DNA from: a virus
Virus record (IMG/VR): IMGVR_UViG_3300020204_002217
Coordinates: 7,508 to 71,507 of that record
Reading direction: 5' to 3' (one strand)
Length of the DNA stretch: 64,000 bases
Part shown: piece after piece, positions 1,249 to 50,846 of the stretch
How the letters are laid out: every line of letters starts with the position of its first letter
Numbering within the stretch: the first letter of the stretch is position 1
The notes under the pieces: generated by a model
What the model saw: the letters and a program-made list of their open reading frames with translations, nothing else
Databases searched by the model: none
What the model was told of the DNA's origin: nothing
Made by a program: the position numbers and the translations under genes

Positions 1249-1256
1249 TACTTATA
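1249..1256 (-). promoter_or_regulatory. Late promoter variant TATAAGTA
   Basis: One mismatch to TATAAATA; 5 nt before ATG 1243; overlaps the upstream TAA stop. Confidence 0.5.
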
Positions 1257-3585: not shown

Positions 3586-3604
3586 TTTGTGTATACTCCT
3601 TACT

Positions 3605-3611
3605 TATTTAG
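3605..3611 (-). promoter_or_regulatory. Late promoter-like CTAAATA
   Basis: Overlaps the TAA stop of 3608..4264 and is followed by AAGGAG and the TTG start. Confidence 0.45.
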
Positions 3612-4264: not shown

Positions 4265-4265
4265 A

Positions 4266-6551: not shown

Positions 6552-6558
6552 AGTTGAT

Positions 6559-6565
6559 TATTTAG
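6559..6565 (-). promoter_or_regulatory. Late promoter-like CTAAATA
   Basis: Overlaps the TAA stop at 6562; 7 nt before ATG 6551; no Shine-Dalgarno. Confidence 0.45.
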
Positions 6566-11217: not shown

Positions 11218-11219
11218 GA

Positions 11220-13588: not shown

Positions 13589-13594
13589 AAGATT

Positions 13595-13602
13595 TATTTA
13601 TG
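13595..13602 (-). promoter_or_regulatory. Late promoter-like CATAAATA
   Basis: Overlaps the TAA stop at 13598; 6 nt before ATG 13588. Confidence 0.5.
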
Positions 13603-15822: not shown

Positions 15823-15824
15823 TT

Positions 15825-25987: not shown

Positions 25988-28900
25988 TTAATATATGTTG
26001 GAGTTTAAGAATATAGCAGCAGAAGTTGTGCTTATTGACAAAGGATCTCCCAACGTTGTATTATATGTATAACTATTCCAAGTCCTATTATAATTAGAAG
26101 CAATCATTCTATTATTTGGCAATAGGCTAAAGACCTCAGTATATTTTGGTATAGACAATTGCATACCTGTGCCATTTGCTCCTCTTTGTAAATTACCTAC
26201 AGTATTCAAGTCAGGATCGCAACTAAAGAATTTTATATATTCTCCATTTATTATTAAATCACGACCTTCAATTACTGTAATCATTAATTCATCCCCTTCT
26301 TCAAGATACTCTGAATTTTCAGTAATTATTAATGTCGGACTTAAAGCTTCGATTTCTACTTCGAATTGTGTTTTTGGTATTTCAATATTTTTAGTTTCAT
26401 TACGTACAAGTATACCGCATAGAACTTCTTTGTTTGCGTATAGACCAAACTCATATCCATCATCTGTTGGGGCCATTACCATATACATATGTGCTTCGCT
26501 TTGTGTAACCTTACTAAGGTCGTCTAAGTAAATTTCATTATCTATATCATTTAATGCATGACGTAGGAATGTTCTTGTCTGACTGTTGGCACGATAAACT
26601 GCAGGTTGATTATTTTTATCAACAAGATTTAAATAGCTTTCTTCATTTGGAGTTGCGTTTGGGATCATGCTAGTAATAATTACTTCATCTCCTGGCTCAA
26701 TCGTTGTGAGAATACTTAATTCGTTTGCAGCATTAAGTCTTAAGTGACTAGAAGGTAATCTATAACCATTAACTGTAACCCACAATCTATCTACATTACT
26801 TTGTTCCCACTGAGTTACTGTAATTGTACCTGAGGCATTATTTAATGCAAAGATGTCTCCTTGTCTAGTTGCACTTATAGTAAATTCATTTAAACTTGAA
26901 GTAGTACCTGTACCTGTGCCGGCACCTGTAGCTATAAATATTGTACCAACATTATTATCTACTGCACCTACTAACGTAAAGTCGGTATCTCCTACAGTTA
27001 AAATTTGATATTCATAATCTGTTATTAAGGCTGTAGCTACTGTTTCTGGAGCGACTGTCTTAACATAATAAGTTGTTCCGTCAATAATGTTGCTACTACT
27101 CATAATAGCATCACCAATATTTGCTCCAACTTCAGTAAACAATACTGGAGTATTAATAATTAAACCATCTGTACTCTCGACCGTAATTCTGTCGGTCGTA
27201 GCATTAGTATCAGTAGCTGTTGTTAAAGTAATTACAAACAATCCTGCTCGCCATATGTATCCGTCGCTAATATAGGCTGATACCATTTCTACAGGATAAT
27301 TTGGTTGAGCATATGCTGGATTATATGGTTCAGTATATAAATCTACTATAGTGGTTGAAATTATATGCACGTAATACTTGTTATTATTCAATTGGGTAGA
27401 TCCTTCTACGCCATCAATTTGTACAAATGTATTTTCCGTTAACGCATGCGGTATTCCTGTTTGTACTCTTACAGCGGGTTGCCCACCAATCTGAACTAAT
27501 ATAAATCCAGTATCGTCTGTAAGAGCTATTTGATTGCCATCTTCGTCCTTTATAGTAAATTCTGAGGCATTTATTATAGTATCTACAAAATAAGTTGTAC
27601 CTAATAAACTTATACCGCCTAATGAAGCCTGTAATGCTTTACCAGTACCAGAACCTACAGTAGCATTAGCAGTAAATGTTCCATAAACTACTGGAGTTCC
27701 AACATAGCCTACTGCGTTCCAATTAGTATCTCCTAAAACTTCAATTCTATATTGCACACCATTTGTTAAACTATCTGCAGATGATCTAGAAGTTTTAAAT
27801 AACGCAGTTTGTCCTACTACAAAATTAGCAGTACTACTACAAGTTATAACATTAGTTGTTGATGAAGTTCCTGTAACATTAGTTTCCGCTATAGGACTAG
27901 AAAGTGTATTGCTGATAAAGATAATGTTAGCTACAGTCAAACTATTGACTAAAACGGGCATAGCACCAGTGTCGTTTGTTAATTGTAATGCTGGTCCACC
28001 TAATGTTTCACTTATTACAAATTCTGTGCTATTGAGAATTTCTATAATATAATATATTTTTCCTGCTACTATTCCGTCTAGTACAGGACTTTGGAATATA
28101 ATAGTGTCATTTACGTTAAGTTCCGTAGTAGTATATCCTGATGCTAATGTTAACCAATTTAAATTTTCATCATATGTTACTATGCTAGGTGTATTTTGGT
28201 CATATGTTTGTATGCTAGGAGTATCTTGGTCATAACTTCCAATAGAATTATTAGTGCTTTCTACCACTAACTCTAGGAAATCACCACCGAGAGTACCTGT
28301 TACACCAAATTCAGTATTAAAGTATTGTCTATCAGTTAAATTGTAAGATGTTATTGCTACAACACTATTTGCTGGAGGAGGGCTTACAAATGTAAGTGTA
28401 TCTAAGGATGAATTAATAGTGTACTGACTTCCTGTTTGACGTAAACCATTAATTTCTACAATTGCATTTCCAGGATTATCTTGTCCCACAAAGTAAGATA
28501 ATGCAAACTGAGACGTAGAGCCATTACCATTAAACAATTCAGTTTGTGGTAAAGTATATCCATATTGAATTGGGCTAGTTTCACCAAAGAATGAATATAC
28601 TAGATAATCTATGTCCTGATCATATTGATCTGCTAATAATACTTTAGCCTGCACGCTATCCGACTGTATACCAATAGCATAATCATATGTTATGAATATA
28701 CCGCCACCTGAACCTTCTGCAAGTAATATTGTTGGTCCTCCTAAAGTTGCACTAATAGTAAATTCATTATCATCAATTATATTATTAATATAATATGTTG
28801 TTAATGGCACCAAATTTGCTCCGCCAAATGTTACAGTCTCACTAAACTTAATAGGATCATTAACACTTAATAATGCAGTAGTATTAATTGTAATAGCATT

Positions 28901-31900
28901 ATTTGTATTTTTAGTTTTAAATACTGAACCGGTTATACCATAAGTTAATAAAGAACCATTATGATACATAACTGGATCCGTATATACTAGACCTGAACCT
29001 ATTTGTATTATAACACTCATTGGTCCTTCGCCGGTAAGCGGACCATCGAGCAATTCTACAGCAGGACCTGCGATTCCGCCGCTTGCAGACGCAGAAATTA
29101 TAATTGCATTTCTAGCATTACTAATTTCCTTGACATAATAGTTGGTATCTTCTAATAGTCCCCCGTATGTGTCGCCTGTAAATCTTACTATTGTATTTTG
29201 TACAAAATATGAAACGTCAGTGCAAATAATATAATTACTTACACTTTCTGTTTTTATAACCGTAATTTCAATTGGTTCAGTGCCTGGCTGAATTAAACCG
29301 CTGCCTTGAAATACACTAGCTGAGTAGTTACAATTTAAATTTATTTCTTGGAATCCAGTTATAAGATTTGCACGAATAGGATCAGTCTTAGTACTTGATT
29401 TTACTAGCTGATCGCTGTTACCCACTTCATATACATCAATTCTTAACTTATCCATAATTGGACTGAATGGCAATGGATTTGTCAATGTAATATAATTGTT
29501 TACATAATTTACTGTATAGTCTATTCCCTCGTACAATCTTGTGCCTAAATTAGTGGTTCCATTTATTTGGTATACCGTTAATTGTGCAGTAGTTTCACTT
29601 GTGATTTGTATACCTTCGTGTGAATGTCCATGAACATGACGCATAGGCCCATACATATATTGAACTTGATCTGCTGTATCAGGATCGTACTCTACAGAAA
29701 TTGAATTATATCCAACATGTTGGTATTCAGTTACTTCCCAATTTGTGCCTGCTCTCGTTGAAACAGTCATATTTAAATTGTCTGTAACTATACCTGGTAC
29801 TAATTCTTCTGGGCCATAACCAAACACAAACGGTGAGCCAATAACTTCATAAGCAGGGGAGACTATATTAAAGAAATTATCAATGTCCCAAGTTACGCCA
29901 TCATCATATGATCTTATAGCTGTATTATTATCTCCAACAACAGTAAATCTTGTTTCTGCACTATCAAAATTTATAGCATTTAGATTTTCTGTGACACCAC
30001 TTGTTTGTGTAACCCAATTAAATCCATCACTACTAGTTCTAACTTCACCATCGTTACCTACAGCCATGTAGATATTGTTTTGATATATAACATCGTTAAG
30101 TTTTGGTTCGTATGGATATTTGTACATTAATGTTTGTTCAGGTATAGATCCTATACCAGATAAACCTACTGTACCTGTACCCGATGTTGTACCTGTTGCT
30201 GTAAACACAACTCCTGGCGTATTTGTTGCTGCGCCAACTAAAACAAAATTAGATGTTCCTGGATTTAATATTGTGTAGGTCTTACCGATTTCTAAATTGC
30301 CTGCAGTTACATCTGAATTTATTGTTATGAAGTTACTTGACAAAATGCCAGTAACAGTATATGAAACGTCATCGTCAATGATGTCGAATGGCTTAGTAAA
30401 TCTTACTGTATCTCCTACAATAAATCCTAGAGTGCTGCCTACAGCTATTTTCTGTAAGCTTGATCCTAACACTAAATTTACGTTTGTTTCGGTGATGCCT
30501 TGCCATGTGCCCGGCTGTGTTGATGTATAGATAGCACCATTATCACCGACAATTATAATATTAGTGCCATCACTAGTTATACTATAGAAACCATTTTGTG
30601 TAGCTGAACCTGCACTTGTCCAGTTATAACCATTAGTACTATAAAGAATAATGTTTGTACTAACTATTTCGGTTAGTCCGCTGCTATAATCATAACGCTG
30701 ACCTTTACCAACTGCTATCCAACCGCTAAACAAACTAGTGCTTACATAACTTATACCATATAGTTCTTGTGTTAAGTTACTATCAAATCTAAACACTTCC
30801 TGCCAAACTGTTGAGTTTGTACTTAAAACTATCTTATTACCTACAGCAACATAAACTCCATTATTATAAGCTACACTATTTAAACTTAATGCACCATTTG
30901 ATAATGGTATAGCATACTGACTAGTTTTTCCGAAAGGTATTAGTTGTCCTGCAGTAGTCCATGCTGTGGAATTTACACTGCGTATAATAGGTGTTGCGCT
31001 ATTCGTACTGGTCATTACATAATAAGTGCCTGAGTATATTACGTCACTTAATCCTAACGGTTCATTTGCAATTTTTGCAATATCCCAATTTACATCGTCA
31101 ATATCTACAGCAAAGGCTGAGTATGTTGGTAAGTTTGCTGGTGCAAAATAACGTGTACCAACAAATATCAAACTTTCCATATTAATATTTGTTGGATAGA
31201 AAGCCTGCGCTTGTAGTTGCGTGTCTAGAGGAAATTGTTGATCTGGTTCAAACGCATTACCTAAGTAGTTGTTATTTGGATAACGTGTTCCAGTAACTAA
31301 TTGAGTTGTGTCAACACCAGGCATATCAACAGTTGGTTGATAGTATCCTATTATACGATCTAGACCATTTAATACTCTGTCACCGCTGTTTAACAATTCC
31401 CATTTACCATATACGAATTCAGGGTCATTATTACTTACAATACATCTGTATACATTATTATTATATTTGACTATGCTTTGATTAAAGTAAAACGGTTCAG
31501 GCAAGAATGTAAATGCTCCTGCTTTTGCCATTGTCATATTTCCACTAGAATTAGTTAATGAGAATGTTGAGCCTCCTGGCTGATCGCTTATTGTAATTGT
31601 ATTACTACTCTTTGTTAAAATATAATAAGGAGTACCCAAAGTTACGCCCCCAAATACTGTGCCAGAAAATATTATTGTATCATTTATATTAAATTCGCTT
31701 GCATTTGTAACAGTAATGATGTTTGATGCAATACTGCTAGCAGTTGTAGTTGTATATCCATTATAGTTAAAATCATTAATATTAACATGCTGAGTTAATA
31801 ATGGATTACTGTAGACTTCAAATGTATTTGCACTTAACACCTTAAGATAATACTGATTAGCTACACCAGCAGGTGTTCCTTGACATATTACATTTTCAAG

Positions 31901-34900
31901 TTGTCCATTTGCACCTATCGTTTCAACTACTATGGTTAAATTATTATTTGGTGTTGTGCCACCAATTAAAACTCCTGCTATAGTAATAGTATTGTCTGTT
32001 GCAAAGCCTGATCCAGCATCTTGAATTTGTACTCTATATCCGCCTAATATATAACTTACATCGAATATTGGAGTGCTAGTAATTTCTTGATCTAATACAA
32101 CAGTTTTAGTTTCACTACTTAAAGCAATAGTGGAACCGCCTATTGAACTTGATAATGTTATAAAAGGTTCGCCGGCACCAGTCATTGGTCCGCTATCTGC
32201 TGTTAAATCTTCCTCTGGTCCTCCTGGACTTAAAGAAATCTTAAAGCTTGTATTGGACACAATTGAGCTAGGTACTACATAGTATTGAACACCAATAACT
32301 ATACCACCTAAACCAGAACCACTAAAAATTATTGAAGCATTATCATATAAGTTGCTAGTATCAGAAGTTAATAATAAATTTGCACTTGTAGTTGCTGTTA
32401 CCGTAGTTTCTAATACACCAATTGTTTTAATAAAATAAGTTGTTCCGGAAGTTAATCCACCTAAGTCTTGATCTAGAGTAAATGGCATATTAACATACAT
32501 GTTTGTAGTGCCATCTACAACTTCAACAATATATACGTCTTCTATTGCTAATGCATTAATACCGGTTAAGGATGCCATAACACTACGTGATATTAAGTTG
32601 CCGATTGTAAAGACATCTATATTCACGTATTGAGGGCTTGTATCGTAAAAAGTAAATAATTGACCATCTACTTGTCCAGGGCTTACTGGAAGTGATACAT
32701 TCATTACTATATCAGTATCAGCATCGGTTAATTGTACAACCTCAGCTTGACTTGTACCTAATCCTGTTGTATCTGTAGCACTTGCTACGGTAGTTACAGC
32801 AAATGTTGTGCCGTTGATACTTTCACTTAAAGTTATTATTTGTAGGTCAATAATAGAACTTACATAATATATTACGCCTTCTAATATATTACCGAAATTA
32901 CTTACAGTTAATCCAGATATTTCTAGGTTACTAAATGTAATAGGTTCATTGACTGCCAACCCAGTAGTACTATCTAAAAACACATAATTACCTGTGCTAT
33001 TAGTTTCAGTCAAAATGTATGTAGTTGGATTTTTACTTTCACTGATAGTAAATGTTTGTTCATCTAGAATGCTTGTAACATAATATGTTTGGTTCATTCT
33101 AATGTTGCCGGCATATAGAGGAGGATCTATTACTCCTGGTAGTGTAAAGAACAATGGAATATTCGTATACAAGCCGGTTGTGCCACCTGTACCTATAGCT
33201 GTGATTGGTACTGTTAATGCATTTACATTAGCTGAGGCTCCTGTAATTGTACGTATACCCGAATAATCTACACTAATAATTGTTTTGTTAACAATTTCTG
33301 CTGTGTAAAGTTTACATCCTGCTGGACTTACTGTATAGTCTGCTAAATTAATACTTGAGCCACCATTAGTTAAACTTACTTTAAAATTCTTTTCATCTAC
33401 AATTTCACTTATATAATAAACTGTAAATCCTTGTAGACCACTTGTGCCCACATCGCCAATCATTTTAATTGGCATTCCAATGGTAAAGCCTATAGTAGAG
33501 CCGGAACTATTAGGCTCACCTGTATCATCATCATATGGTTCAAGTTCAATAGTATCGTTAGTACCATCAAAATCTACAACTGTTCTTTCAAAACTCGACC
33601 ATTCAACACCGTCACTGTTATCAATAGTAATTGAAGTTGGTATACTTTCTACAGTGTTTATTGGGAAGACTACTCCTTGTGCGCTAGCTAAAATATTTTC
33701 GATAGGCGGAGTTGTGCTTTGTAATGATATTATTGAGCTACTTACTCTTTCACTGTTTTCATAGGTACCTGCAAAGAAGGATCCATAAAATGCATCGGCT
33801 CTCCAATCTGTAACCTGACTATTATATGTTGTTCTATCAAAGCGTAGATTGATATTATTTTCTCTCACAGGCATAGCACTGCTAATTGTGCTAGCTTTTG
33901 CACCAAAATTAAGTGTATGTGAGCCAGAGCCTTGATTATAAAGTGTAACTCTATCAACATCATTAACTGCATCATCAAAACTAGTATAGAGAGCAATAAT
34001 TGTAAATGGTGCGTTTTCTAATACATTGATGTAATACCATTGATTGTTATCTAAACCACCAACATTAATACTGCCTGGATTATTTTTATATCTTAATAAA
34101 TTTCCTGTACTCAAAGAAGGTGCAAATATTTTAATTGTATTTGTTAGTTCGTTAATATCGCTTACAGTGAAATCAATTACTAGTGCAGGATCAATAATAA
34201 TTTCTGGTAAGAATACATATCCTAATCCTGGATTTATTACAGTAACACTTACTACACTGTCTAAACTCATAACTGCTTCTAGTACAGCCGGTACTTTTGG
34301 TTCTGGATATAAACTTGCTGTGCCAGTACCTGTACCTGCACCGGTAGCTATAAAGCTTAAGCCAATAGTATTACTAGTTGCACCGATTAGCGTAAAGTCA
34401 GTAGGATTATTGTTAAGTCCTAAAGATTGTATAATATAGTTTCTACCACTTATAAAAGTGCCTGCTTCTGTTAGACCTATGTCTATATAAGCTGTGACCT
34501 TAGGTGGTTCAGTATATTGACTGCCACCGTCAAGTAGTAATACAGGCGGTAAGTCAATATAAATATTTTGTCCTGGTAAATGATCAAATACTGTGGTACT
34601 ATTTAATCCGCGCACTAATCCGCTTAGTGTGTTTAATGCTCTATTAACGTTGGAGTATCCAATTAATTCATAACTTTGTTTAGTTGGGTCACTTGGATCA
34701 TAAATTTTAATTACGCCGTTTATAGGGAACCCACTAGCGTTGTCAACTATTATAAAGTTACTTGCTAATGTAACATAGCTGCCTAATGTAGTAATTAAGA
34801 AATCATTTTGCCCAGTTATGCTTACTCCATAATTATTATACCACTGAGTATATTCTGCATTTTGCCAAATGTCATTACCAGGCAAATATTGATAACCAGT

Positions 34901-37900
34901 ATTTGGATTTTGATAAACTAGTTCAGGGCTTACAAACTGATTAATATCAAAGGCGAATTGTGCGGGCAAATCAAAGTCAGTTATATTGCCTTGATATATT
35001 TCCTCACCTGTATATTGAATTAAGAAGTCTTTTATTACAACGTGATAGGGCTTAACTTCATTGACATAACCTTCTAGGAAAGTTTGATTATCGCTTTGAA
35101 AAACCTTCAATGGTATTAGTTCTCTAATCTTGTGACTAATATCGACAAGACTTGTTTTATTTAACCATGGTAAGTAATTTTGTGACTCCACAGTTTCACT
35201 TTGAATATAATCAAATAACAATATTAAACTTTGATTTCTTAAAATTAAAAGTTCATTAGTATAAATCTGTTCATTTAATGCACGAATTATCCAACGAGTT
35301 GGACCAGAAGGATATACATCGTATGTGTCAGTATCAAAGAAGTTATCTCCAAATCCTAATCTACCTTTTGAGTAATCCCATAAAGTACTACTAAACTCAA
35401 TTGTACCATTTTGTAGACCAATACGGATCCAACTCTCTTTGCCGGTTATATTATCCTCGTCATAAATATACCATTCAGTATTACCATCACCGTTAGTAGC
35501 TACAGAAACTATCGTGCCATAAGGTACTTGTAATTTAGATAGGTCTGCATATAAAGGAACACGCAGTGCTGCTCTAGTACTATTATCATAGCCAGGAGCC
35601 CACCAATTAATATTATTAACATAATCTCTAGTATTATAAATTAAAACTTGTTCGCCATTAACCTCAATATAACCTTTATTGTTTAAGAATGTAGCACCGG
35701 GACGAATTTCATTAATTGGATACTTTGCTAGTTCAGCATTAGCAAAAGTCAAATAATTTTTTAAAGCCAAATTTCTATTATAGAAGAAACTTTGTCTTGG
35801 TCTTGCTAGTATACCGGATTGTACTGCCTTAGGTAAATATGGATTAGGTACTATTTGCCCTGGTTCATCTGTACCCGGACTATAATTTACTACGCCTGAT
35901 AAACTATCTAACAACTTGTCGTAAAGACTAGTTGGATATATGCTGTCTACTGTTGGGAAACCAGGCAAGAAGTCGTCAGGATTATTAACTCTTATTAAAT
36001 TAAATTCATTGTGACTTTCTGCTGCTGTACTGCCAGTGGAGTAGCCTACGTGTAATACGCTATCATCTGCATTTAAATATGATTGAGAATTATATAATGC
36101 AAAAGCATTAGGCAATAATGGCGCTAGATAAGCTATGCCTGATGCTAGGGGATTAGCAATATAATTACTTATTGTTGTATCTGATAATGTTTTTCCGCGC
36201 TGTTTTGCAATTATGCCAGTATCTCTTACCCAAAAGTAATATAGTAAAGAATTACCACCATTATTATCATTAACAGCTTCTACGCTAAAATTATTAATAT
36301 TATATGGTATGCCGGGTCCTTCATAATTTACAGGTATCTGTTCAGAAACTACCCATGAATAAATTGCAACGTCACTATTTGGAAACAAATTTGCCCAATA
36401 TCTTGCATTGTAAGCTGGATCGTTTTGATGATAATTTAAATATCTTATATTTGAAGTGTCGAACCATATTTGTCCAACATTTCGTGCGCCCCACATTTCA
36501 CCAGTATCTAAGAATATACTATAGCCGGCTGGATCGTTATTACATACATAATCAATATTTGGTCTTACTGCGCCTAGTATTTTGCCTTGCAATGGATCAA
36601 CATAATCTAAATGAACAAGTGTATTATTTGTAGACGCACTAAAAATTTGAGTATTTTGTATTTTTGTAATGTCAACTACTTCTGCACTTTCTCTAAATAT
36701 TTGCCAGTCATTTAATCCATTCAAATTAACAAAGGTTGTAACTTGACCGTCTGTAAAGTCGGGTCTAAAGTTTGGAGTGCCCACTACAACCCTATTTTCA
36801 TTAAAGTCTAAAGTTGTGCCATATCTTGGTTGTGAACCATAATTTAAATTTTGATCATTTACACATTGTGCGTAAACAAAAGCACCCACATTATTAATAT
36901 TTTCATTATAAATGCCGATGTAATCATACATATACACCGCGCCTGCGTTTACAAAACCTTCTATAAACTGTGTGCAATTATTATCAAAAACAGTATCATT
37001 ATCTAGGTTAGCGTCATCAGTAAAATCAAATAATGTTTGAGCATAACGTGTTCCTACAGGAGCACTTACTACAATACTATTATTTGATGTATTAAATTTA
37101 ACAAAAGTACCAAATTGTGTAGGACCTGTTAAGTGTGGGCACTGTATGGTTTGAGTATTTGTATATAAAGTAAATCCTAACTCGGTTAATGTGTCAATTT
37201 CTGTTACGCTGATATTTAACTTTTCATTTATCGGTGCAAGATCATTATCTAACAATTGAATTACTAAAATACCATTTGTTTGGCTTGCGACTATATTAGT
37301 GATGTTTGCAGAATTGATTGCTTCCATCACACTTTCAGCATCACCTGCAGTCAATAAAATATAATAACCATTTATTAATAATTTTCTATTTGTAGTTATA
37401 GAGACTGATTGATTTCCTGTTATGCTACCATATTTTTGAGAGCCGTTCGTATATCTGTACACCGCGCCTTCTTCATTTGCACTATTCAGTGCAAATGGCG
37501 CACCTATAATTATTTCATTACCATATCGATTTGATGATACGCTTGTGCCGAATCCTGTGCCTGTACGTTGAGTGTTCGGGCTATCAATAGCTTGTACTAA
37601 TACAAAATTATTACTACTGATATTAATAACATCGCCTGCTCTTAAAAAGCCTGCATAATAAATGTTAGATCCAATTACATAATAATTGTCATCTGTAACA
37701 TTTATACCATTTACACTTACATATAAAGGTGTACTTTGTATTGTTGCAGATATAGTTAATGGACCAGCTTTAGTAGCTAAATTAACAACTGTATTTGTGC
37801 TTCTTGATGTTTTAATAGTAATCGTTGAACCAACTATGCTACCTACATAGTAAACTTGATTTGCTATAATATTTGTATCTAACAAGTCATTACCTGTAAA

Positions 37901-40900
37901 GACAATTGCATCATTAGGATTAATATTTGCTATATCGTTTAAAGTGATTGTATTAGATGAGCCGTCTAATGTGCTAGTTGCTGTTCTCGATAATGTTGAA
38001 GGAGTCCAAGCTAAAGGAAATACTTGCGGTTGACCATTGATAGAAGGAGCTTGAGTTTCTATATTTTGTATAAGTCTTTGATATACATAAGACGCTCCAG
38101 TATTTTCAACAGATACACTATAATCTTTACTTGGCGCGCCAACAACTAATGTGTCTCCGTAATAATCAGTAGAAATAGAAGTACCATATGCCTCTGCGGA
38201 TACACCAGTAATTACGCTAGAATATTGATAAGTTACTTGGCTTGCTTGACCAGTTCCACTACCTACTCCTGTTGCGACAAAATACAATCCTACTAGGTTG
38301 TCGTCAGCACCTACAGCAGTAAAGTCTGTTGGATCTTCTAATACCTTACCATTACCGGTTCCCACAGCAGTAGCCGTGAATACTGTACCGATTTCATTTG
38401 ATGCAGCACCTATAGTTGTAAAGTCGGTAGTTCCTTGTGAAACGATTTGATATGTTTGTCCTATAGTTATGCTAGTAGCTACAATTTCATCACCTAAAGA
38501 TGTAATTTGAAATGTTTGACCTACTGCAAAATAACCTGCTGTATATGGAATATTGCTCTTTCTATAAACAAATATTTTATTATCGTCCTTTGCTGAGATG
38601 TATAACCAATTTGTATCTCCGGAGAATGCTAAGGCTTCGCCCCATTCTCCTGTTGCACTTGCATGTCTGCTTATCTCTTGATATGTTACAAAGTCGTCAG
38701 TGACTGGAGTATCATTGATAGTGTAAACATAAACTTTTGGTGTGCCCGTTGGTTGTGACACAATATATAAATTTTGTGCGTGTGCTAAGGCAGTACCATA
38801 ACTTGTAGTTTCGGTTATAGTTTCATTTAACTGATAATTTTCGTAAAGATCATTATAAGTGTAACGATATAAACTACCTATATCTTTGTCAGTTATTAAA
38901 TATCCAGCAATACTATCATAACCAACTGCACTACCAAACTTAGCACTATTTTGTTTTGTAAATTCTTCTTCAAATTTATAGTTAATACTCTTGCGATATA
39001 CTGCCCAACTGCCGCTCTCAGCTTCGTCTACCCAAACAGTGTTTTTTACAAATTCAGTATCAATTAACGGTAGTGAATTAATTTGAGAAGCATTAGCTAC
39101 TCTTGCTGTTTGAAACTTATAGGCAACACCTTGACCTGTTACAATATTAACATTATTTGTTAAATTAAATGTTAATTCAATTATTACTTTATTTTGATCA
39201 AGAATTTCTTGGCAAATATAATAACCATCTACTATTGGACTAAAATTAATAATTGCAAATGGTTGAAATTTCGTTAATCCATGAGGCTGTTTAAACGTAA
39301 CAGTACTAAAATTTTGATTATTATTAATTTGTACACTTATTACATTTCCTATGACTTTAGGAGTATAAATTTGAAAGTCAGCAAGATAATTAGCTATCCA
39401 TACAAATTGATTGACATAAAATTCATTTAAAGTAACAGGAACACCGTTGGCTCCTATAGCTGAAGGTAATTCGCTAACGTAATATGCTAGCATTTTAACA
39501 TCATTAACATTTGCATAACCAGCGTTTGGATATATGTCGCTGTAACTTGTAGGTTCTATTGTAGGTAGTACATTTGGATTAGATATTGGCTGACTGTAAT
39601 TAAACAATGAATATATAGGTACTTGTTGCTGTATACCGGGTGTATAAACACCATTAGTTAATGCAACTGTGCCAGGATTATTAGTTAATAATTTTTGTTT
39701 TAATCTAAATTCAACAAAGTTGTCATTCAATACTCCACCAAAAGCCTGTGATTTAATAGCCCAATTTTCATAAACTGTATAATCAATACCGCCTTGCGGT
39801 AATTGCGCTCCTTGGAAGGCTGTCAATGCATTCAATGTACCTTTATTTTTGATGAAGTTTTTATATACATTAATTTGTGTAATATCTGTTAAATCTGCGA
39901 TTGCTAGATAATCTCTAGGACGATATCCTATTAATGAGAATGATAATAAGTCTGCATCTTTTTCAAGGTTAGCAACATCTGTATTGTAATACAATGCACT
40001 TTCATAACTTCTAGTACTGCTATTAGGCAGTAATCCTTTTTGAATTTCATTGTAATCAGTTTCTTTCCATTCATCTTCCTGAAAAATATTGTTTGGTTGA
40101 ATAATTGTCGATGCAGTAAAAAACTTATTTTTATACTTAACGATACTGCCCTTTGTATATTTGACTTCTTTTTTCCATTGTTCAATATTATCTTGGTTAT
40201 AGATAAAGCCGCTAGCAGTAACTGTTCCGTTCCAATCAGCAGTTTTAGTGCCATACAGTTTAATTCTTACTTGTCTTAAACCTGTTATTAAGTTATAAAT
40301 GATATCATCAAATAATGTCACATTATCAAAGACGATTCCATTTTCAAATGCGCTTAAATTAAATTGTCCATAAGCAATAGTATCACCCTTATTTTGTGTT
40401 TTGACACTAAAAAGTGTATCATTTCTTACAATTGATAAATCCTTCAACTGTATTGGATAAAGATTTTGATTTAATATAAAGTTTTGTTGTTGTATAGTTA
40501 ATGGTTGTACTACAAGTCCTGGTTTATCAATATTAAGTTCTGTAGCCCAAGGATTTAAAGTTACAATACTACTATCTTGCCAACCCATCTGTGACCAATA
40601 TAAAAATTCTAATACCATTTGTTGCCAAGTTACAGGTACAGCGTTTGTAATTTGATTAAATTGTGCGCCTTGTTGTTGTATATAATTGCCATAGCTCATT
40701 AAGAATTGTGACAACTCTTGTGCTGTTGAAAACGTTGTACCATATGGAACATACTCTAATGTAGTGCTGTAGTTTTTTGCTACTTTTACAGTCATATTTT
40801 CTACAACCAAATTATCTAACTCGCCGTCAAAAATTGGTTTAACTATTGTAAAATAGGCGTACTGTTGATTATTACCAAATACACTATATCCTTCTCTTAC

Positions 40901-43900
40901 TTTTTGTACAATTACTGCACTATAAATAATTCTATCACTTGGTTGATTTTCATATAATAATAAATTATAACTTTCGTCAGGTATTAACAAACTAGCATTT
41001 GTGTTATTTGGTGTACCCTTTTCAACATAAAACTTTAATAATTTCTTATCACTAAATCCTGCCATTCTATAAACAAGTCTAACATCTAAATTATACAATA
41101 GTTCTTTAATATTGGTAGTACTGTCTAATCCTAGTTGTTTTTCAAAATCAACTATCCAATTAATATAACTTGTTTTTGCTGTACCGTTACCATATATTTC
41201 AATGTTAGCAGGTACAAGATGGCTGCGATCATTTACTAAGTATTGGTTAAATTCTTCGCTGTAACGATAATTGTCTAGGTCGGCACCTAAGTTATAAAAC
41301 TTAGCTGGTTTAGTTAATGCCATTAATCTCATCAAGTCAAATGGCCAAGTTGAACTACGGCGATAACTAAACTCTACCGGACCGTCGTCTCCTACCAACC
41401 AGTCTTTATTAAAGTTCTTACTTATATAATTGCCTACTGTAGAATTAATAGGCGGTACAATTTTTCCTTCGCTATCAACAGGCAATACTTCTAGCAATCC
41501 CGGACGTATAAATTCAGGAATAATTCTTATATCACCATTATTATAATCTATACCTGCTGCTAAATCTTCCCACATTACTAAGTTATTACTTGTATATGGA
41601 GCAGCACCATATTTTTCATCCCACCATTCTGGTTTGTTTACATATCCAATCATTTCCCAAGGTGTTTTATTGGGCATAGTAGTATCAAAGAAGTAACTGT
41701 TAATACCTCTCCAATAACCTTGAAGTATAGGACCTTTACTTAATTTGTTTTCACTATTTCTATAATTGAATGAGAAAGGATTAGTGCTTGAATAAAATTG
41801 ACGTTTATAATTTAATCTGTTTTGACCGACCCAATCTAAGAACATTGTGCTATACATGCTCAGAAATTCATCGTATGAGTAATCGCTAGGTCTAAAATAT
41901 CCAGGCAATATTTCATAATCTCTAATTGGAATAGTTGATCCTAATTTTAGGTTGTTATAAATTCTACTTTCAAACTCTAAAAGTACTTGATCTCTATAGT
42001 CAGTAAGCACTCCAGTGACAGGATCATAATCTCCGTATAATTGATTATATGATCCATCATGACCCTTAATAAAGTAAGTAGGTATTTGATAACCATCATC
42101 AAAAATAACTTGTGGTATAAAAGATGGATATAGTCCTAATTTAGTAGGTGTATTTGGAACAAAGCTACCATATGTCTGATTGTATTCGTTGATTGTAACT
42201 TCGTCGCCTTCTTGTAACTCTATTAAAACTGTTAAAGAAGGAGCAGTAGAACTTACAACATAATCAACATCACGTATCAGTTGTTTAACTATAGGTAATC
42301 CAGATGTTGGATATATTGTTCTGTAAACTAATACACCGTTATAATTTGCTACATTGAAGTCATAAACTCTAGACAATCCAAACACACTGCCTGTGCTATT
42401 GTTATTAAAGAAATAAGTATTGGTTGCGTACACGCTTCTGTTTGGTAGCATGTCCGACCAAAAGAATGATTGACTTCTATTTTTATATGCAGTAATTTGC
42501 TCCAATGCATCGTCAAGCATGAATGCAGGTGTAGACCCTATATTATATGAGGTTTTAGTTATAACATCAACTAATAAAGTTTTAAATTTTACGTACTCAC
42601 GACTATTATACAATATTGAATTTAATAGGTTATGATTTGGACCGCGCATAAATGCAGCAGGTAAAACCAAGCTAGCACTATTTTGTATAATTCTGTTACC
42701 CCAGGGTACAAGATTACCTAAATCTCTATAATTATTTGAACCAAAAACTACGCCTGTGATATTTGGATTATTATAGAATATACTTTGATATTGTCCGCGG
42801 ATATCACCTATGTTCACAGTTGTAATATCTGTATTAAATGGGTCATTACTTAAATTAATTGGTATTGTATAGCTTGCTTTTGTGCTTACTTTTTCACTTA
42901 TCATTAAGATTTGTATTACAGTATCAATATCCTGAGTTAGATTGATAGTAAAAATTGTATTTGTTCCATCAATTACATAAGAGTACTCATCAGTTGACAT
43001 TAAATTATTATTATTATATACCTGTAATACAGGCCAATATAAGTTGGTTTGATCTATGGGCGTGATGTCAGATTTTACCAAGAAAGAAATAGTATCTCCA
43101 TTTTGTAATAGTCTGGGAGGCACTGTAGCGTTATACTTGTATTGGAATAGTTGGTATTGAGTGCTTGGAGCAACAGCAGTCTGCCATCCTAATAATCTTT
43201 CTCTTTCTGTTCTTGTAATGTAATTATAAACATAACCTATGTTTATATTTTCTGTTACAGGTTCTGTTGTTATAACGTAATTAAATGTATCTTTGTTTAA
43301 GCTTACCTCAAAGCTTATATCTCCTACATTATTAAGTTCGCTATATTGTAGGGGAAAACCTAATACACTATCTTTAGGACCCTCTCCTATACCATAAGCA
43401 AATAATTTTGTACCTTCAAAACTTGAACCTTTATATACAGTTCGGTCGCCTATGCTTATTCCATTACTATCAAATATGTCGAATAAGGGAGGTTGATTGA
43501 CTGTTGTTTTTTGTTGCCCTTCTAAATATTCTAAGCCGTCAAAGTAAAATGTTAGACCCTGATAATTGTAACCTCTAGTTACTACTGTTTGATCATCAGA
43601 TAATATTTCTCCGTCAAACGCTTCTGTAAGTGTTATAACTGGAGTTGAGCCTGGTATAATAGTTGAAAAAGAAACTACATAAATTTTTGATTTAATACTT
43701 AAAATACTGTCATTAGCGAAAATAATTCTGGCTCCTGAAAACAATTGATAACTTGTATTATTTTCATTACCTGCTACAAATGAAGTATTAGTTACAGTAT
43801 TGAAATTTGTTGGATCGTCCCATGCTACAGTAATAGTTAATACTGTTACACCTGTTATATTTGTTATTAATGAGTTTAAAGGTAAAGTTTGTAATTGATC

Positions 43901-46900
43901 ACTAATATACATATCAGTGGTTAAAGTACCTTCAATATCATTGGCATTAATTGTAATTGTTGTTTCAGTTTCGCCAGCAGTCATAGCTGTTGGTGTTACA
44001 GCAACCGCAGGTGCAACACTGACTGTATATGTTCCTATACCTCCTGTACCTGTGCCCAATGCTGTTATTGTAGTTCCTACAGTTACGCCATCACCAGATA
44101 TAGTTGATCCTACTGTTATAGTTCCAGTAGTAACGGATAATACATTTAAAGTGGTGCCTGTTAATGATGCCACAAACTCTGCTCCCACTCCATTGATAGT
44201 AGCTGTAGGTAGTGAATAAGTTTGAACATCAGGCCAATAAACTGTTTGACCTGCTACATCACTAAATGCATCAGTTGTTCTATAATCAATAAAATCTACA
44301 GGAGCTTTACCTACAGTGCCACCCTTATACAGTTTTAAGTTTGGATAAAATTCTATAATTGGACGTTTTGCTTTATTTTGTGGGGTAGCATATAAATTTT
44401 CAATGTCTGGATTTTGATTGTAAGTTGCAGTATCTTCAATTACTTGTTTATGGAACCAACGATTACTACGTGACCAGGCATTACGATTAATACTATTTCT
44501 AGCTATAGTAATATAATCTTGATCTAATGGAATATAAAGTGCGTTATCATATGGATCAGTGTCAAAAGGCAAAATGTCATAAGGTGTATATGTATTTTTT
44601 GTAAAGGGTTCTGGTACTACCAATGTATTAGTTGGTACTAATTCTATTCCTCGTTCAGTACCTACACCCTCAACATAGTATTGACCCTCAAGATAGCTTA
44701 CTGGTATTACGTCACCGATAAATTCAACTTTTAATCCATTAGTAAATTGTACACCATTTTCACTAGTAAAATTTTTCTTGCCTAATATATCAAGTTCAAC
44801 ATTTAATGTGTTAAAATTATTGCCGTCTATAATTTTAATAATACCTACTTTTAATGGGCTGCTTCCATCTTGATAATATAATTTATTAAGGGGTGCTGAT
44901 ATATAAGGTATTTTTAGTATGTATCCTAAAGTATTTTTGTAAAAACCTAAGTTAATAAATTCTTCGCCGTATTGTGGAATAATCTTTTGATTAACTGGTA
45001 TAAGTCCTGTAGGTATTAATTGTAAGACTGGATCATTTGGATCACCCAAATAGTTTATAGTAAAGAACCAATCATTAACATTATAATTAAAGCCTTCTTC
45101 ATATAAACCTTGATTGATGTTTGCAGTCATGTTGCCAGAAGCTGTGGTTAAAACATGATCTTCTATTGCTGCACCATAACCTTCTATTGCTACACCAGTA
45201 GTCCCTGCATCAAAGTTTGTTGCTACAAATCTTTTAATATACGCACTGCCAGTAGTGTTTACCTGTGCTACACTTCCATAAGGACTTGCATATACAGTAT
45301 CTCCTACGTTATATGTAATACCTGTAGTATCTGCTAATGCATTCCAATCTGTGTCACCCAACGTTTCAATAACATAAGCTATGCCTGGAACAAATGAACC
45401 ACCATTTACTAAAACTGCTCCACAACTTGCCCAGTCAGTGTCACCTAGTATAGATATTTCATAAGTGTTACCAACAGTAAGTGAACTTGCGCTGGTTGTA
45501 CCTGTGCTTGTTGCTGTAAATCTTTGTTCAAACGCTTTACCTGTGCCTATGCCTACACCTGTAGCTATAAATGCTAAACCAACTGTATTATCATCAGCTC
45601 CTATAATTGTAAAATCTGTAGTGCCTACTTCACTAATAAAATATGTTTTTCCTATAGTGAAAAATCCTGCATTTGTTTCTGTTGCGCCTACTGATGTCCA
45701 ATTAGTTTGATCATATTCACTTATTGAATATCTACGTCCTACAACAAAAGAACCTGAATTTACTTTTGTATTAAGAGTAATATTAAATGTTGTTGCACTA
45801 TCAATTTCACTTACGTAGTAGATTGTATTTGGGTTGGTAGTATTATAAGAACTAATGTTACCAAATGTAACTGGATTAAATGTGATTGTTTGACCTACAT
45901 TTAAATTAGCTGTAGTATTTGCTGTTAAAAGACCAGTACTACTGTCAGTATTAGTAATGTTGATTAATTCAACACCGCCTGTAAATCCTAAATTTGTATC
46001 ATAATTACTTTGGTCATAAAAAGTATTAACTTGTGCAACTTCGTTTGGAATACCTGTATTATAAAATAAAACAGTTAGTCCGTTAAGACTGGTAACGCCA
46101 TCGATGCCGTTACTAAGTGAACTTAATTTAACACCGTTTAAATTTGCAAAACTTGTTGTACTAACTACACCAACAGGATTATTACCTGGGAAGTCAAATT
46201 CATCCTGAACATTTGCTGCAGGTACATTAAATGTTACAATGCCTGTTGTTGCACCATTATTAGTTACACCAAAAATTTCTCTTGTATATAAATTCGGCTG
46301 AGAAGGACTGTAGCCTGTAACACCTGGTTCGCCTTGTATCCAAAAATTGGTATTTTGGTTTACATAAAAGTTATATTCGCCGCCACGTATTAAAGTAATA
46401 GTTGGATTATTTGTTCCAGATGCAGCGCCTAATTCTTTTATATTGTATGCGTTAGGTAAATCTGTTACAACATAATCTTGTGCGACAAACACTGTGCTTG
46501 AACTAACCTGTACTGCTGGCGGACCTTCTGGTAACCAATAGTATTCATTATAGTTAATAACTGCATCTAGATTTGTAAAACTGTCCCAACTATAAAATTC
46601 ACTTTCAAATAATCTATTATTATCAGTCGATATTCCATTGCCTAACTTTATTGCATCAAGAATACCAGGATAGCTTAAAAAGTCTTTAGCTACTTCTTCA
46701 TCTTTTTTCGTAAAAACAACGCCTGGCTCTAATTGATAATCTCTTCTAACTTTAGTTGGTTCAGTTACATAATAGTCATTGGCATTAAGTCCATAACCAA
46801 ATCGTGAACCTATATAGCCCTGATTTTTCTGCAAAGTTGGGGGATTTACTAATTGATCCAATGTAGCCGCAAGAAATTGGCTATTCGTTGGGGTTTGAAA

Positions 46901-46940: not shown

Positions 46941-49900
46941 TTATCTTTCTTGCAACTCTGCAGGAGTTAATGCAGCAATTACTACAACATCATTTGATGT
47001 AGCTGCATTAACAAAAATCTCATATGGTGCAGATTTAATCTCATACAAATCACCGAACTGTGCTTCAGGATTATTTGGTACAAGTACAGCACTATTAATT
47101 AAATCACCACATTCATTATGTAGATAGGCACTAAGTTCGCTGAAATAAAATGTTTCACCGAAGTTCCAATTATTGATGTTAAAGTAATTATTCATAGCAG
47201 TTAATACAGCACTACGTATTTCACTATCACTAGCACTTGTATCTACATTTTTAATTACTTTTATTGTTCCTCTAAGTGCTGCGTCTGCTTTAATTCCAAA
47301 TAAGGGTTTAAAAGTAACGCAGTTTAAAATTACGCTATCACTCAACATTTTATAATCATTAATTTTGCCGTATGCAATATTTAATTCTGTTGTAGTTGGC
47401 TTATCTGGATAAGGTACTGTATTAGTTGTATCAACTAACCAATTATTATATGCAGTATAATAACTTTGCGTTACTACATATAAGTCAATTATGTTTGTTG
47501 TAGCTGGATCGATACGTGTAGTATTGTTGCTATTATGACGATATTGGAAACTTAAGCCCTGTCTGCCAGGTTTCATAGTATATAGTGGTTGTAGTACTAA
47601 ACTATACGAAGGCGTTGTTACTGTAGGATCTTGTACAGTTTTATAGAAAACATTATACTTTTCATAACTATCAATTTCAGCATATGCATAAAATAATTGT
47701 CCTAATGGATAATCATATTTTACTACTTCAATTTGATTTTTATTACTATATTGATATTCAACTTCACTTGTAGGAACAATTTGTTCTCTTGTTAAATTGA
47801 TTGGATCTTGAATTGTAACGAAAAATACATACTTACCGATGTTTGCAGCATCCGTTTGCACACCAGTTACAGTTTCAAAAAAATCTGGATTTAATATTAA
47901 AGTTTTATTATTAACATCTGTACCTGAAACTTCTACTTCAAAATCATTAATATAACCGTCGCTTTCAACAGTTTGACCAACAATATTTACTTTAATATCT
48001 CTTGATAATGAAGTGTTTGAATATGGTATAGTATTTATTGATAAGATGTTTATGTAATCTTGTAAAATTTTACCACTGAAAGGATCATAAACTAATTCTC
48101 CTGTGCTAAAGGCAAATCTAATATCTTCAACACTGCCGAAATAGTAAGTCAATGATTTATAAGTTACGCTATATCTATTATTACCCAAACTTAAAAAATT
48201 AACAAAATAATCAGGATCTTCATATGGACGTATTGACCATCTTTGTTGATCTATTGCTAATGAATTATTAAAGACTAAGGAGAAGCTGAGTTGTAGTTCC
48301 ATCCTGTCAACACATTCATTTACTATAATAGTATTAAGTTTATTTTCAAATACAGGTATAACTTGTGTACAAATTGCGCCTTGTGGAATAAAGCCATTTA
48401 ATGTAACTGGTCCTGTTCCATTTGCAAAGTTTCCTTGACCGTTATTATTACCGTCTCCATTTATGTTAAGAACAGTAGTCCAAATACTTGTAGGATTGTT
48501 AGGTCCTGGTATACCAGAAACTAGTCTATTTTTATCGTTAAAATAAAATCCTATTGGTGCTGTAAATTGTACTAAAGCACCTTGTGTAATATATTTGGCA
48601 TTATTGCTATTAAACAGACCAATTGCTAAGGGCACATCATTGTTTAAGTTAATATTATAAAAATATCCTGTTTGACTATTTGCATCTACTGTACTGCTAT
48701 GCCAGTAAACTGTGCCGTCACCGCTAGCAGCATCTAAGTTGTAACGCTCATAGTTTTGAATATAGTATTGATTTGCCTTATTTGAAGCAAGAACGGTTGC
48801 CAAATCAACAGATAAGAATTCGATAATATCACTTTGGTCAACAATAGTTAAGTTTAAAAATCCATCAATATCAGTTTGATATAAAGCACCATCACTACCA
48901 AAACTATTAAGGCTTGAATATTTGCCTGTTGGATCAAGTAAATCTAAATTTTTGCTTACGCCTACGCTACTACGGTTTACTGCTTTTGATTTTATTATTG
49001 AACTGTATAAAGTATAGGGGAAATTATTATAATCTTCACCATTAACCATACGATTTTGTGTATAGTAACGTGTTGGTGCGCGTTGTTTTATATCAGGCAA
49101 TGTTTCACGTGCCTGAGCATTAGATACTGGGTTAGTAAGAGTTAATCCAACAGTCAGTGTTTCAATTTTGCCAACTCTACTGATGTAATTAAATGATACA
49201 CTAATACCTTGCATTTCGCTTGGATCGATTGTATAAGTTAAACCATTGCCAGCACGTACATAGGCTCTAAATGCTCCTACAGGAATTTTACTGAATACGC
49301 CGTCTCCAAATACATATGTTACTTGATCGTTAAATCTACTATTGACACTAAAGATTTCTCTATTGCTACCTTCGGTTTGTAAATATGCGTTGGCGTAAAC
49401 ACTATCTACTTGACGCCATAAAATTCTTGTATTATTATCTGCACTTAATTGATATAACCAAGTATCAGTATTATTGATGCCCTCAATGTTGATATCAACT
49501 ATTTGATTTGATATTTGCTGAGTAAAATTAAAATCTACGTTTTGTAATATACCTTGTTTAAAGTAAAAGAAAAATCCAGTATCGCCACTACCATATCCTA
49601 GTTGGTCGTTCCTGTAACACAAATTAAAGCGTCCGCTGGGAGCCGGCGGAATTTCATATAAGTAATCTTTACCAACGCTACTTACACTTACTAGTTCAAA
49701 AGACATAGTTGTACCGTCTATACTAGTTTGAAAAGGGGCGATTGGTAATGTATTAGTTGGTATTTTTATTGAATATTCGCTAGTTACCACACCTAATATA
49801 TCGCTTACATTTCCTGGTCTACCTATTTTTTGTGTGTCGATAAGTGCAGCGTTAATGATTGCATTAAACTGCTCTAAGAAAAATATATTAGCTGGGTCAT

Positions 49901-50333
49901 TCCATAGAACAGGTACATTACTTAAGTTAGTACCATTTAAATCTATAACATTCTGTGTGGTTGATATGCTTGTGATTTTAAGGTAACCTTCAGAACACAG
50001 ATTACGTTTTGGCGTATAGCTTACAAGATTTGCTAACTTAATAACACTATCACGGCGTTCGGCTGTGTCTAAGAAATTTTCACGACTATTAAGATCATTA
50101 CGAAATGCTAGACCTTGACCCATAAAGGCCATAACGTCTAGTAATGCAATATATTCACTACTTTCGATATAATCATTAAATGTTTCTGGATAATAGACAC
50201 GAAGATAATCTATGAAACTTTTACGCAAAGTTTCATAATCATAGCTAAGGAAATCGGCTTCACGAAAAGTTTGATAGATTGCTTTCCAATCATTTACACC
50301 GAACAATGCAGCTTGTCTTGAACTTGTAGCCAT
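46941..50333 (-). CDS. gp6: Baseplate wedge subunit, T4 gp6-like
   Basis: DY.TLR..FIDYLR..F.DY.ESS..LLD.MA, ENFLDTA.RRDSV..LA..VSY.PK, FGDGVF.KIP, AP..Y.TQNRMV..EDY. Confidence 0.85.
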
Positions 50334-50838: not shown

Positions 50839-50846
50839 TATTTATT
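50839..50846 (-). promoter_or_regulatory. Late promoter-like AATAAATA
   Basis: 6 nt before the gp25 ATG; no Shine-Dalgarno. Confidence 0.45.

Follow-up and report, generated by a model that had tools for sequence, protein, structure and literature searches.

Accessory domains on phage particles are already known, and most of them are immunoglobulin (Ig)-like domains placed at protein termini. Ig-like domains of the Big_2, I-set and FN3 families occur on phage virion proteins, for example on T4 Hoc, and are thought to add weak adhesion. Here we describe a much smaller module of ~47 amino acids (aa), present as 10 copies (m1 to m10) in P0001, a giant virion structural protein of 6983 aa. P0001 is encoded by a single open reading frame (ORF) at positions 25988-46939, minus strand, of a 64,000-nucleotide stretch of viral DNA (positions 7,508 to 71,507 of IMG/VR record IMGVR_UViG_3300020204_002217). 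This whole stretch is called the window below, and all nucleotide positions refer to it. Like the Ig-like phage domains, the module is a small, beta-rich and virion-confined accessory unit that is patchy among orthologues and sometimes forms bead-like arrays. However, Ig-like domains are ~90 aa long, and the module behaves as an interchangeable loop cassette that lies inside loops and inside itself, not only at termini.

Other described systems also come close. The I-domain of the P22 coat protein is an example of an insertion domain in a phage structural protein. Such domains resemble the module in being an extra domain in a loop of a virion protein that leaves the host fold undisturbed; however, they are one domain at one fixed site in one family, whereas the module has ~50 alternative sites, many unrelated host families and recursion. 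Rickettsia palindromic elements are in-frame selfish DNA in coding genes. They share with the module a wide scatter of in-frame insertions, each of ~100-150 bp and placed on protein surfaces, but the module lacks a palindrome, its DNA identity is low and its folded peptide is conserved. CBM_5_12 and LysM domains are similar to it in size (~45 aa), surface exposure and frequent repetition, but the module has no Pfam match to either and is predicted to form four strands and a helical turn, whereas the LysM topology is beta-alpha-alpha-beta. Literature searches listed no description of the module or of recursive loop cassettes in phage proteins, which is weak evidence of absence, as the motif is not searchable by meaning.

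Our analysis shows that the cassette occupies loops precisely and that virion proteins have gained, lost or duplicated it many times. The reading that we favor, with a probability of about three in four, is that the copies are a compact, autonomously folding domain of ~47 residues that belongs to a large phage-virion family and serves as an in-frame loop cassette, gained, duplicated and lost many times in the orthologues of P0001. Among the host loops are the turn of a beta-hairpin, a loop of a putative propeller blade and three of the module's own loops. The module matches no model of the libraries searched and has no solved or Foldseek-detectable relative; it occupies ~50 sites in one family, self-nested up to three deep, and is also found within unrelated virion proteins from many uncultured phages.

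Ten copies of the module in one reading frame

An earlier note, made from the letters of the window alone, had described about 10 copies of a ~45-aa mini-domain. A hidden Markov model (HMM) built from the six uninterrupted copies (profile A) found all ten, with a length of ~47 aa; the nucleotide coordinates given in that note agreed within about 10-30 nt, and its consensus was correct. Full copies were recovered with independent E values (i-E) of 1.3e-24 to 1.4e-22, and split halves with values of 1.2e-14 to 5e-3. A profile of 67 sequences gave 11 pieces in the whole 71.5-kb record, all of them in the P0001 ORF and in one frame. The copies are grouped 4+2+1+1+1+1. They had been called "not tandem," and tandem repeats are indeed absent, but m1-m4 and m5-m6 are adjacent, since copies are nested (m2 in m1, m4 in m3 and m6 in m5). 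Three copies (m1, m3 and m5) are thus each interrupted by a nested one, and the nested m4 is a divergent variant.

All copies lie on the minus strand. The m1-m4 group as a whole is located in a loop of the first host repeat. The N-terminal part of m1 (aa 395-423; 45671-45757; HMM positions 3-36, i-E 2.5e-8) is interrupted by m2, a complete copy (aa 424-471; 45527-45670; i-E 1.5e-24, and E 9.5e-22 with the 67-sequence profile). The C-terminal part of m1, which carries the F-T-A-T...G-T motif (aa 472-484; 45488-45526), is too short for an HMM match and was assigned by eye against the consensus. The next copy, m3, starts directly afterwards (aa 485-512; 45404-45487; HMM positions 2-28, i-E 1.9e-8), is interrupted by m4 (aa 513-567; 45239-45403; HMM positions 4-25, i-E 8.1e-6) and ends with a C-terminal part also assigned by eye (aa 568-584; 45188-45238). 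Both m2 and m4 are inserted at the loop after the conserved Asn. In the second group, m6 splits m5 between the conserved Gly and the TDF motif. The N-terminal part of m5 (aa 2800-2817; 38489-38542; i-E 4.8e-3) is followed by the complete m6, the copy used for folding (aa 2818-2868; 38336-38488; i-E 1.3e-24), and by the C-terminal part of m5 (aa 2869-2900; 38240-38335; HMM positions 19-49, i-E 1.2e-14). Orthologues with one single copy at this place align across the m6 gap, as an unsplit m5.

The remaining four copies stand alone. m7 (aa 4158-4209; 34313-34468; i-E 9.6e-23) occupies a rare site, and m8 (aa 5544-5592; 30164-30310; i-E 1.4e-22) is found at the end of a host repeat. m9 (aa 6386-6436; 27632-27784; i-E 5.3e-23) lies in the first loop of a host repeat, and m10 (aa 6634-6683; 26891-27040; i-E 4e-24) lies in the beta-hairpin turn of another. 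Both host-repeat splits quoted in the earlier note proved real: m10 separates YYVKTV from NEFTISAT, and m9 separates ALFKT from SLGG..TTYFV.

A subtype of the module was seen in m4, in m9 and in the orthologues P0005, P0006 and P0009. Here T-D/N is followed by Trp instead of Phe, and the second half is longer (...A-G-T...Y-x-V-G-D-x-F...); in m4 it reads TDW-N...AGT...Y-x-V-G-D, and the m4 form is also present in orthologues.

Predicted fold and conservation of the module

When m6 alone was modelled with AlphaFold2, from an alignment of 67 sequences (the six window copies and 61 of 80 IMG/VR loci), the predicted local distance difference test (pLDDT) value was 97.7 and the predicted template modeling score was 0.79. 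By DSSP, the model consists of four strands (2-3, 12-17, 36-38 and 48-50) with a single helical turn over residues 23-26. We also modelled the C-terminal 424 aa of P0001, with 57 orthologous sequences. The mean pLDDT was 83.9, the m10 residues reached 95-97, and m10 showed the same strand and helix pattern as m6 at an offset of 72 residues. In this model m10 is flanked by two host strands, E64-70 ("..YYVKTV") before it and E126-130 ("EFTIS") after it. The models thus support autonomous folding of the module, and the in-frame, self-folding unit in host loops that the earlier note had proposed agrees with them both alone and in context. At the m10 site, the module is predicted to substitute for a host hairpin turn, and its ends would therefore have to be close together. 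Judging from the secondary structure and the host hairpin, its N and C termini do appear to lie close.

Across 755 distinct copies, 12 positions were near-invariant (A3, G9, Y12, I14, G18, T20, G26, G33, F36, A38, G44 and G46). Conservation falls mainly on Gly, on core aromatic or aliphatic residues and on capping or turn residues. Variability is concentrated at positions 8, 10, 11, 13, 15 and 35, the first five of which lie in the first hairpin of the module. Mean column identity among the 67 copies was 56%. In composition, the module is rich in Gly, Thr and Ala; Thr accounts for 19.6% of its residues, and T20, T39 and T45 are conserved at 95%, 75% and 78%, respectively.

Filled and empty sites among orthologues

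Relatives of P0001 in metagenomes numbered 251, with lengths of 3840-12221 aa and on contigs of up to ~364 kb. The orthologue set used here consists of P0001 and the best 120 of these 251 relatives (n=121). The number of full copies per protein varied widely: 7 proteins had none, 33 had one, 32 had two, 19 had three, 14 had four, 8 had five and 6 had six, and single proteins had 7 and 11. In a fast MAFFT alignment, the copies fell in 49-50 site clusters. About half of these clusters were filled in just 1-2 of the 121 proteins, and the best-resolved ones showed 112-120 precise empty sites.

Each site of the window was scored in the 121 proteins as filled, empty, occupied by other sequence or undetermined. 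The class of other sequence includes both the variant subtype missed by the profile and different inserts. As the six-copy profile half-detects the Trp subtype, the counts of filled sites are lower bounds. The m1-m4 loop was filled in 3 proteins, empty in 61, held other sequence in 3 and was undetermined in 54. For the m5/m6 loop, the corresponding numbers were 83, 11, 26 and 1. The m7 site was filled in 2 and empty in 118, with another insert in 1 and no undetermined case. The m8 site was filled in 9, empty in 4, occupied by other sequence in 70 and undetermined in 38; these values were 25, 72, 24 and 0 at the m9 site and 39, 75, 6 and 1 at the m10 site. Counted by DNA loci, the m5 loop was empty in 22 of 54 distinct loci and held a single copy in 29, and the remaining 3 had a copy in a neighbouring loop; at the m10 site, 19 of 58 rows were filled and 39 were empty.

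The empty state is precise. At the m10 site, five orthologue records link both host strands by a turn of 3-4 residues exactly where the window carries the module. The same loop can also take different numbers of copies. The m1-m4 loop is empty in P0002 and P0005, has one copy in P0096 and has three, one of them nested, in P0085. The m5/m6 loop was found empty, with a single copy, with a double-nested copy (P0001, P0002 and P0056) and with a triple-nested copy (P0046). Copies at fixed positions without empty alleles would have spoken against the earlier note; instead, precise empty sites and variation in both copy number and position were found among the 121 proteins.

Loops that hold the module in one protein can hold something else in another. 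At the m7 and m10 sites, an unrelated module fills the same loop in two orthologues. A second loop cassette, of ~70 aa and ending in G-T-G-x-G-G-x-G-T-Y-x-V, was noticed in P0001 at aa ~925-1000 (window ~43940-44167, minus strand) and also in orthologues, and it has no Pfam match. In orthologues it fills mini-domain loops: in P0002 it takes the m10 site, and in P0074 a hairpin of the putative propeller. The insert at the m7 site of P0012 is different from both the module and this second cassette. At a further locus, L201 (record G002), a copy of the module lies ~70 aa before the C terminus of the orthologue; neither the window nor four other orthologue records have an insert at this site.

Tempo and mode of change

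To follow these states, we used a FastTree phylogeny of the conserved core (aa 1333-2248), which is unrooted and has 116 rows after 5 gappy rows were dropped. The filled state changed 3 times on this tree for the m1-m4 loop, 9 times for m5/m6, 2 times for m7, 3 times for m8, 10 times for m9 and 5 times for m10. The nearest relative of a copy (n=304) was a copy at the same site of another protein in 216 cases, a copy at another site of another protein in 84 and a copy at another site of the same protein in 4. Copies at rare sites were closest to copies at other sites, with 57-89% identity. Same-site copies of different proteins had a median identity of 57% (4804 pairs), and different-site copies had a median identity of 47%. 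A few young duplicates were found, with 87.5% identity between two P0002 sites and 80-85% among three neighbouring P0059 copies. The copies of the window had nearest relatives of 60-72% identity.

Near-identical DNA was present in 24 lake-water metagenome runs among the matches listed. Runs from 2018 hold the window almost exactly, and a strain of ~97% identity is present in lake runs from 2025, with a gene length that is stable over the part covered. In contigs of four lake runs over 26000-45999, no joint among those listed removes a copy; the listed joints have sides of 20-37 nt and 85% likeness, touch conserved module DNA and probably come from other organisms. A signature of a mobile element at the DNA level was also absent: none of six copies folds into a hairpin better than its shuffles at z < -2 (z -1.42 to +0.78), and no match lies outside the P0001 ORF in the 71.5-kb record. 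The term "mobile" in the earlier note holds for evolutionary time but not for an active element.

Distribution across phages and virion proteins

The six-copy profile was compared with 1.84 billion representative proteins. It gave 3697 matches at E<=1e-3, 1690 at E<=1e-10 and 100 at E<=1e-30, where 3697 is a number of clusters at 50% identity. The matching proteins are 176-7522 aa long and have up to 29 matched stretches each. In IMG/VR, at least 355 stretches encode the module, on records that range from a 73.5-kb complete phage to 250-335 kb. A scan of 185,579 species genomes with a narrow-pattern alignment (A3), which is not a census, returned 20 loci. Of these, 19 were in metagenome-assembled genomes, many from freshwater or groundwater taxa by title, and 1 was in an isolate, Polaromonas sp. 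SM01.

Among 10 host ORFs examined, 6 matched named families, 1 matched an unnamed family only and 3 matched nothing. The named families were a distal tail protein, a tail protein with SU10 adaptor, head closure Hc3, a virion structural protein with tail spike, a gp8-like baseplate wedge and a virion structural protein. For the SU10-type adaptor and the gp8-like wedge, the profile match was ~60 and ~190 residues longer than the model, with the module inside the span; by these match coordinates, the module is probably inserted internally in both. Another 71 hosts, those of <=900 aa among 148 stored, matched 37 PHROG families. Of the first 25 of these families, 6 were unnamed and 19 named, and all 19 were virion parts (tail spike, baseplate wedge, head closure, adaptor, tail fibre, and head and tail proteins). 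Tandem bead-like arrays exist elsewhere, as gaps of <=15 aa between copies made up 105 of 346 in other proteins vs 17 of 185 in the orthologues. A strict automatic test found self-nesting in 10 of 148 unrelated hosts (P0135, P0140, P0143, P0158, P0184, P0193, P0199, P0203, P0204 and P0223), in the same loops as in the window; nine have their breakpoint at profile positions 25-33, and the tenth has it at 17. This test missed the nested pairs of P0001, and 10 of 148 is therefore a lower bound.

No Pfam, NCBIfam or PHROG model covered the module in P0001, in 10 multi-copy proteins or in the 10 host ORFs. The profile had no match among PDB sequences (best E 0.35), and the same was true for a Foldseek search of the module model against PDB (best E 5.5). 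In BFVD, seven matches at E<=1e-3, with template modeling (TM) scores of 0.86-0.96, were the same domain in uncultured phages; six are named "Uncharacterized" and one "YHYH domain containing protein." ESM Atlas gave low scores only (best 0.81), all from viral clusters without a family.

Several candidate relationships were rejected. LysM had no Pfam match at E<=1 in P0001, and by DSSP the module has four strands and a single helix of 4 residues. Ig-like accessory domains (Big_2, I-set and FN3) were found neither by Pfam nor by Foldseek against PDB. We also considered whether the module is a host repeat in shortened form: MAFFT aligned the first hairpin of the module with the host hairpin, but the hhalign probability was 0.8%. 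Palindromic selfish DNA of the Rickettsia type did not fit the hairpin z scores of all six copies, the DNA identity or the confinement of all 11 matches to one ORF.

Alternative explanations and a possible mechanism

One could regard the copies as a selfish DNA element that transposes in frame, as Rickettsia palindromic elements do, with the peptide as a tolerated by-product. Many dispersed in-frame insertions of a uniform ~150 bp, in unrelated host genes of many phages, are what such an element would leave. We consider it extremely improbable, however: hairpin propensity was found in 0 of 6 copies, the window copies have 67-75% DNA identity although the protein motif is kept, all 11 matches of the record share one frame of one ORF, and the fold of the peptide is modelled with very high confidence, 12 of its positions being nearly invariant among 755 distinct copies. 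That no insertion ever occurred, so that the ancestral protein carried the module in all loops and the patchwork arose by differential loss only, would agree with the vertical inheritance of the common sites (the m5 loop, filled in 83 of 121, and m10, in 39 of 121), with the 216 of 304 copies nearest to a same-site copy and with an unrooted tree on which change counts cannot tell gain from loss. This is very improbable too, in view of the site clusters filled in 1-2 of 121 proteins against 112-120 precise empties at the best-resolved ones, and of the rare-site copies that are closest to copies at other sites. In addition, a nested or triple-nested state presupposes that one copy was inserted into another already present, and the module sits inside unrelated proteins such as the gp8-like wedge, the SU10-type adaptor and the distal tail protein.

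Two further explanations concern what the module does. The earlier note had named a ligand-binding knob and a Thr-rich glycosylation site as possible roles. The module might chiefly be a Thr-rich acceptor for O-glycosylation on the virion, served by phage-encoded sugar enzymes, a role that is compatible with a loop cassette and not exclusive. The Thr content of 19.6% goes in this direction, and the window encodes, at 1252-19725, a UDP-glucose dehydrogenase-like protein, an NAD-dependent epimerase/dehydratase and at least 7 radical-SAM-type proteins. The Thr residues, however, occupy fixed conserved positions of a folded domain rather than a disordered Ser/Thr tract, and a scan of 19 neighbouring ORFs found no glycosyltransferase family at E<=1e-4 (9 of these ORFs matched nothing at all); as a chief role, we rate glycosylation as quite improbable. 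Primary receptor-binding determinants that set host range would be expected where many copies are, in tail spikes, tail fibres and baseplate proteins, with variable positions clustered in the first hairpin (8, 10, 11, 13 and 15). Yet the module varies too little between phage contigs that are very different (56% mean column identity in 67 copies), 7 of 121 orthologues have no full copy, and head-closure, adaptor and head proteins carry it as well, which leaves this explanation improbable.

We return to a loop cassette that has been gained, duplicated and lost. If its ends are close, a copy could be inserted in frame into a tight loop at the surface and leave the host fold undisturbed. Rare illegitimate recombination or duplication of ~150 bp may create in-frame insertions, of which selection would keep only those in tolerated surface loops; such selection would explain the recurrent use of three module loops and of host-repeat hairpin turns. 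Homologous recombination of the flanks among co-infecting relatives could then spread filled and empty alleles. On the virion, the cassettes may project outward as accessory knobs with weak multivalent adhesion to cell-surface polymers. By analogy with the Ig-like phage domains, an exposed knob that adds multivalent weak adhesion is the function that we tentatively favor; the main alternative, which ranks next, is that the module only braces or decorates the particle. A bolder reading, which we regard as unlikely, is that the module represents a new minimal fold and a general "loop plug," whose copy-and-paste, including recursive self-insertion, re-surfaces virion proteins through an unseen recombination route that favors in-frame placement. 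If true, it would provide a natural, evolution-tested scaffold for domain insertion into loops.

Several observations weigh against the loop cassette reading or narrow it. Drawn from a fast MAFFT alignment of ~6500-aa proteins full of repeats, the site clusters may be over-split. The tree is unrooted and covers one region of a gene that is probably mosaic, so that it supports repeated change with the directions of gain and loss not separable. The closeness of the N and C termini was deduced from secondary structure and the host hairpin, and the models cover single copies only (m6 alone and m10 in context). About half of the positions are strongly conserved across phages that must differ in hosts, and constraints of the fold explain this at least as well as a shared ligand. 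With respect to timing, the DNA identity between window copies is just 67-75% over 91 nt, and the closest filled/empty pair at the m10 site shares just 60% flank identity, too little for its junctions to be read. An 11,147-nt contig of the 2025 lake run X17, ~97% identical to the window, covers 26000-36281 and keeps m7-m10; it has 274 differences, and its indels are all small. The insertion events thus look old, and the module is mobile on evolutionary time only.

If confirmed, the module would bring a family of considerable size (3697 clusters at 50% identity) into the annotation of phage "dark matter," and its sites would form a natural data set of where large virion proteins tolerate insertions. 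The module would also offer a compact scaffold for protein engineering and phage-surface decoration, and it gives a handle on the diversification of giant tail proteins in jumbo lake phages.

The host gene and the source phage

The P0001 ORF is located directly downstream of a gp6-like baseplate wedge gene (46941-50333), and a gp5-like hub/lysozyme gene lies at 50845-54537; P0001 is accordingly taken to be a baseplate-associated tail protein. Neighbours of P0001 match phrog_10646 and phrog_13211. P0001 itself matches phrog_10938, "virion structural protein," with E 2.9e-180 over aa 1333-2248 and E 5.8e-58 for its C-terminal half. Since P0001 takes the position of T4 gp7 after gp6, it was compared with PDB chains at E<=1; this search, at the sequence level, gave two chance-level matches and nothing else. 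Besides the T4-type gp5-like hub/lysozyme and gp6-like wedge, the window encodes a late sigma factor and an SbcC-like nuclease on the opposite strand. The whole IMG/VR record of 71.5 kb is 21% complete according to CheckV. One related record of 335 kb is 95% complete, and the clade is therefore one of jumbo T4-like phages. A megablast search of INPHARED found no cultured relative of the gene. With tblastn, the last 1583 aa of P0001 gave one weak match, to a Caulobacter phage tail fibre and outside the module, and a single-protein scan of IMG/VR with P0001 gave one weak locus.

P0001 is itself repetitive. Between aa ~4260 and ~6710 (window ~26800-34160, minus strand), at least 11 host repeats of ~70 aa with a "..YY(V/I).." hairpin were recognized by motif and partly by alignment. 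This repeat is the chief acceptor of cassettes and has no Pfam model. A Foldseek search of PDB with the 424-aa C-terminal model gave nothing at E<=1e-3, the best being generic adhesin-like sandwiches with TM ~0.1. At aa ~2700-3000 (window ~37940-38842, minus strand), putative FG-GAP-like propeller blades are present (Pfam FG-GAP_2, 22.5 bits vs a cutoff of 23, E 1.4e-4), and repeated blade-like motifs are visible. The m5/m6 pair is placed in a loop of such a blade, and adjacent loops of that blade take cassettes in other phages. A weak CBM_5_12-like stretch, below cutoff (E 0.16), lies at aa 2254-2275. Downstream of the virion genes, at window 1252-19725 on the minus strand, lie at least 7 radical-SAM-type ORFs, two with a B12-binding domain and three with an N-terminal SPASM domain, and the same strand carries the UDP-glucose dehydrogenase-like ORF at 4266-6551 and the NAD-dependent epimerase/dehydratase ORF at 11220-12191.

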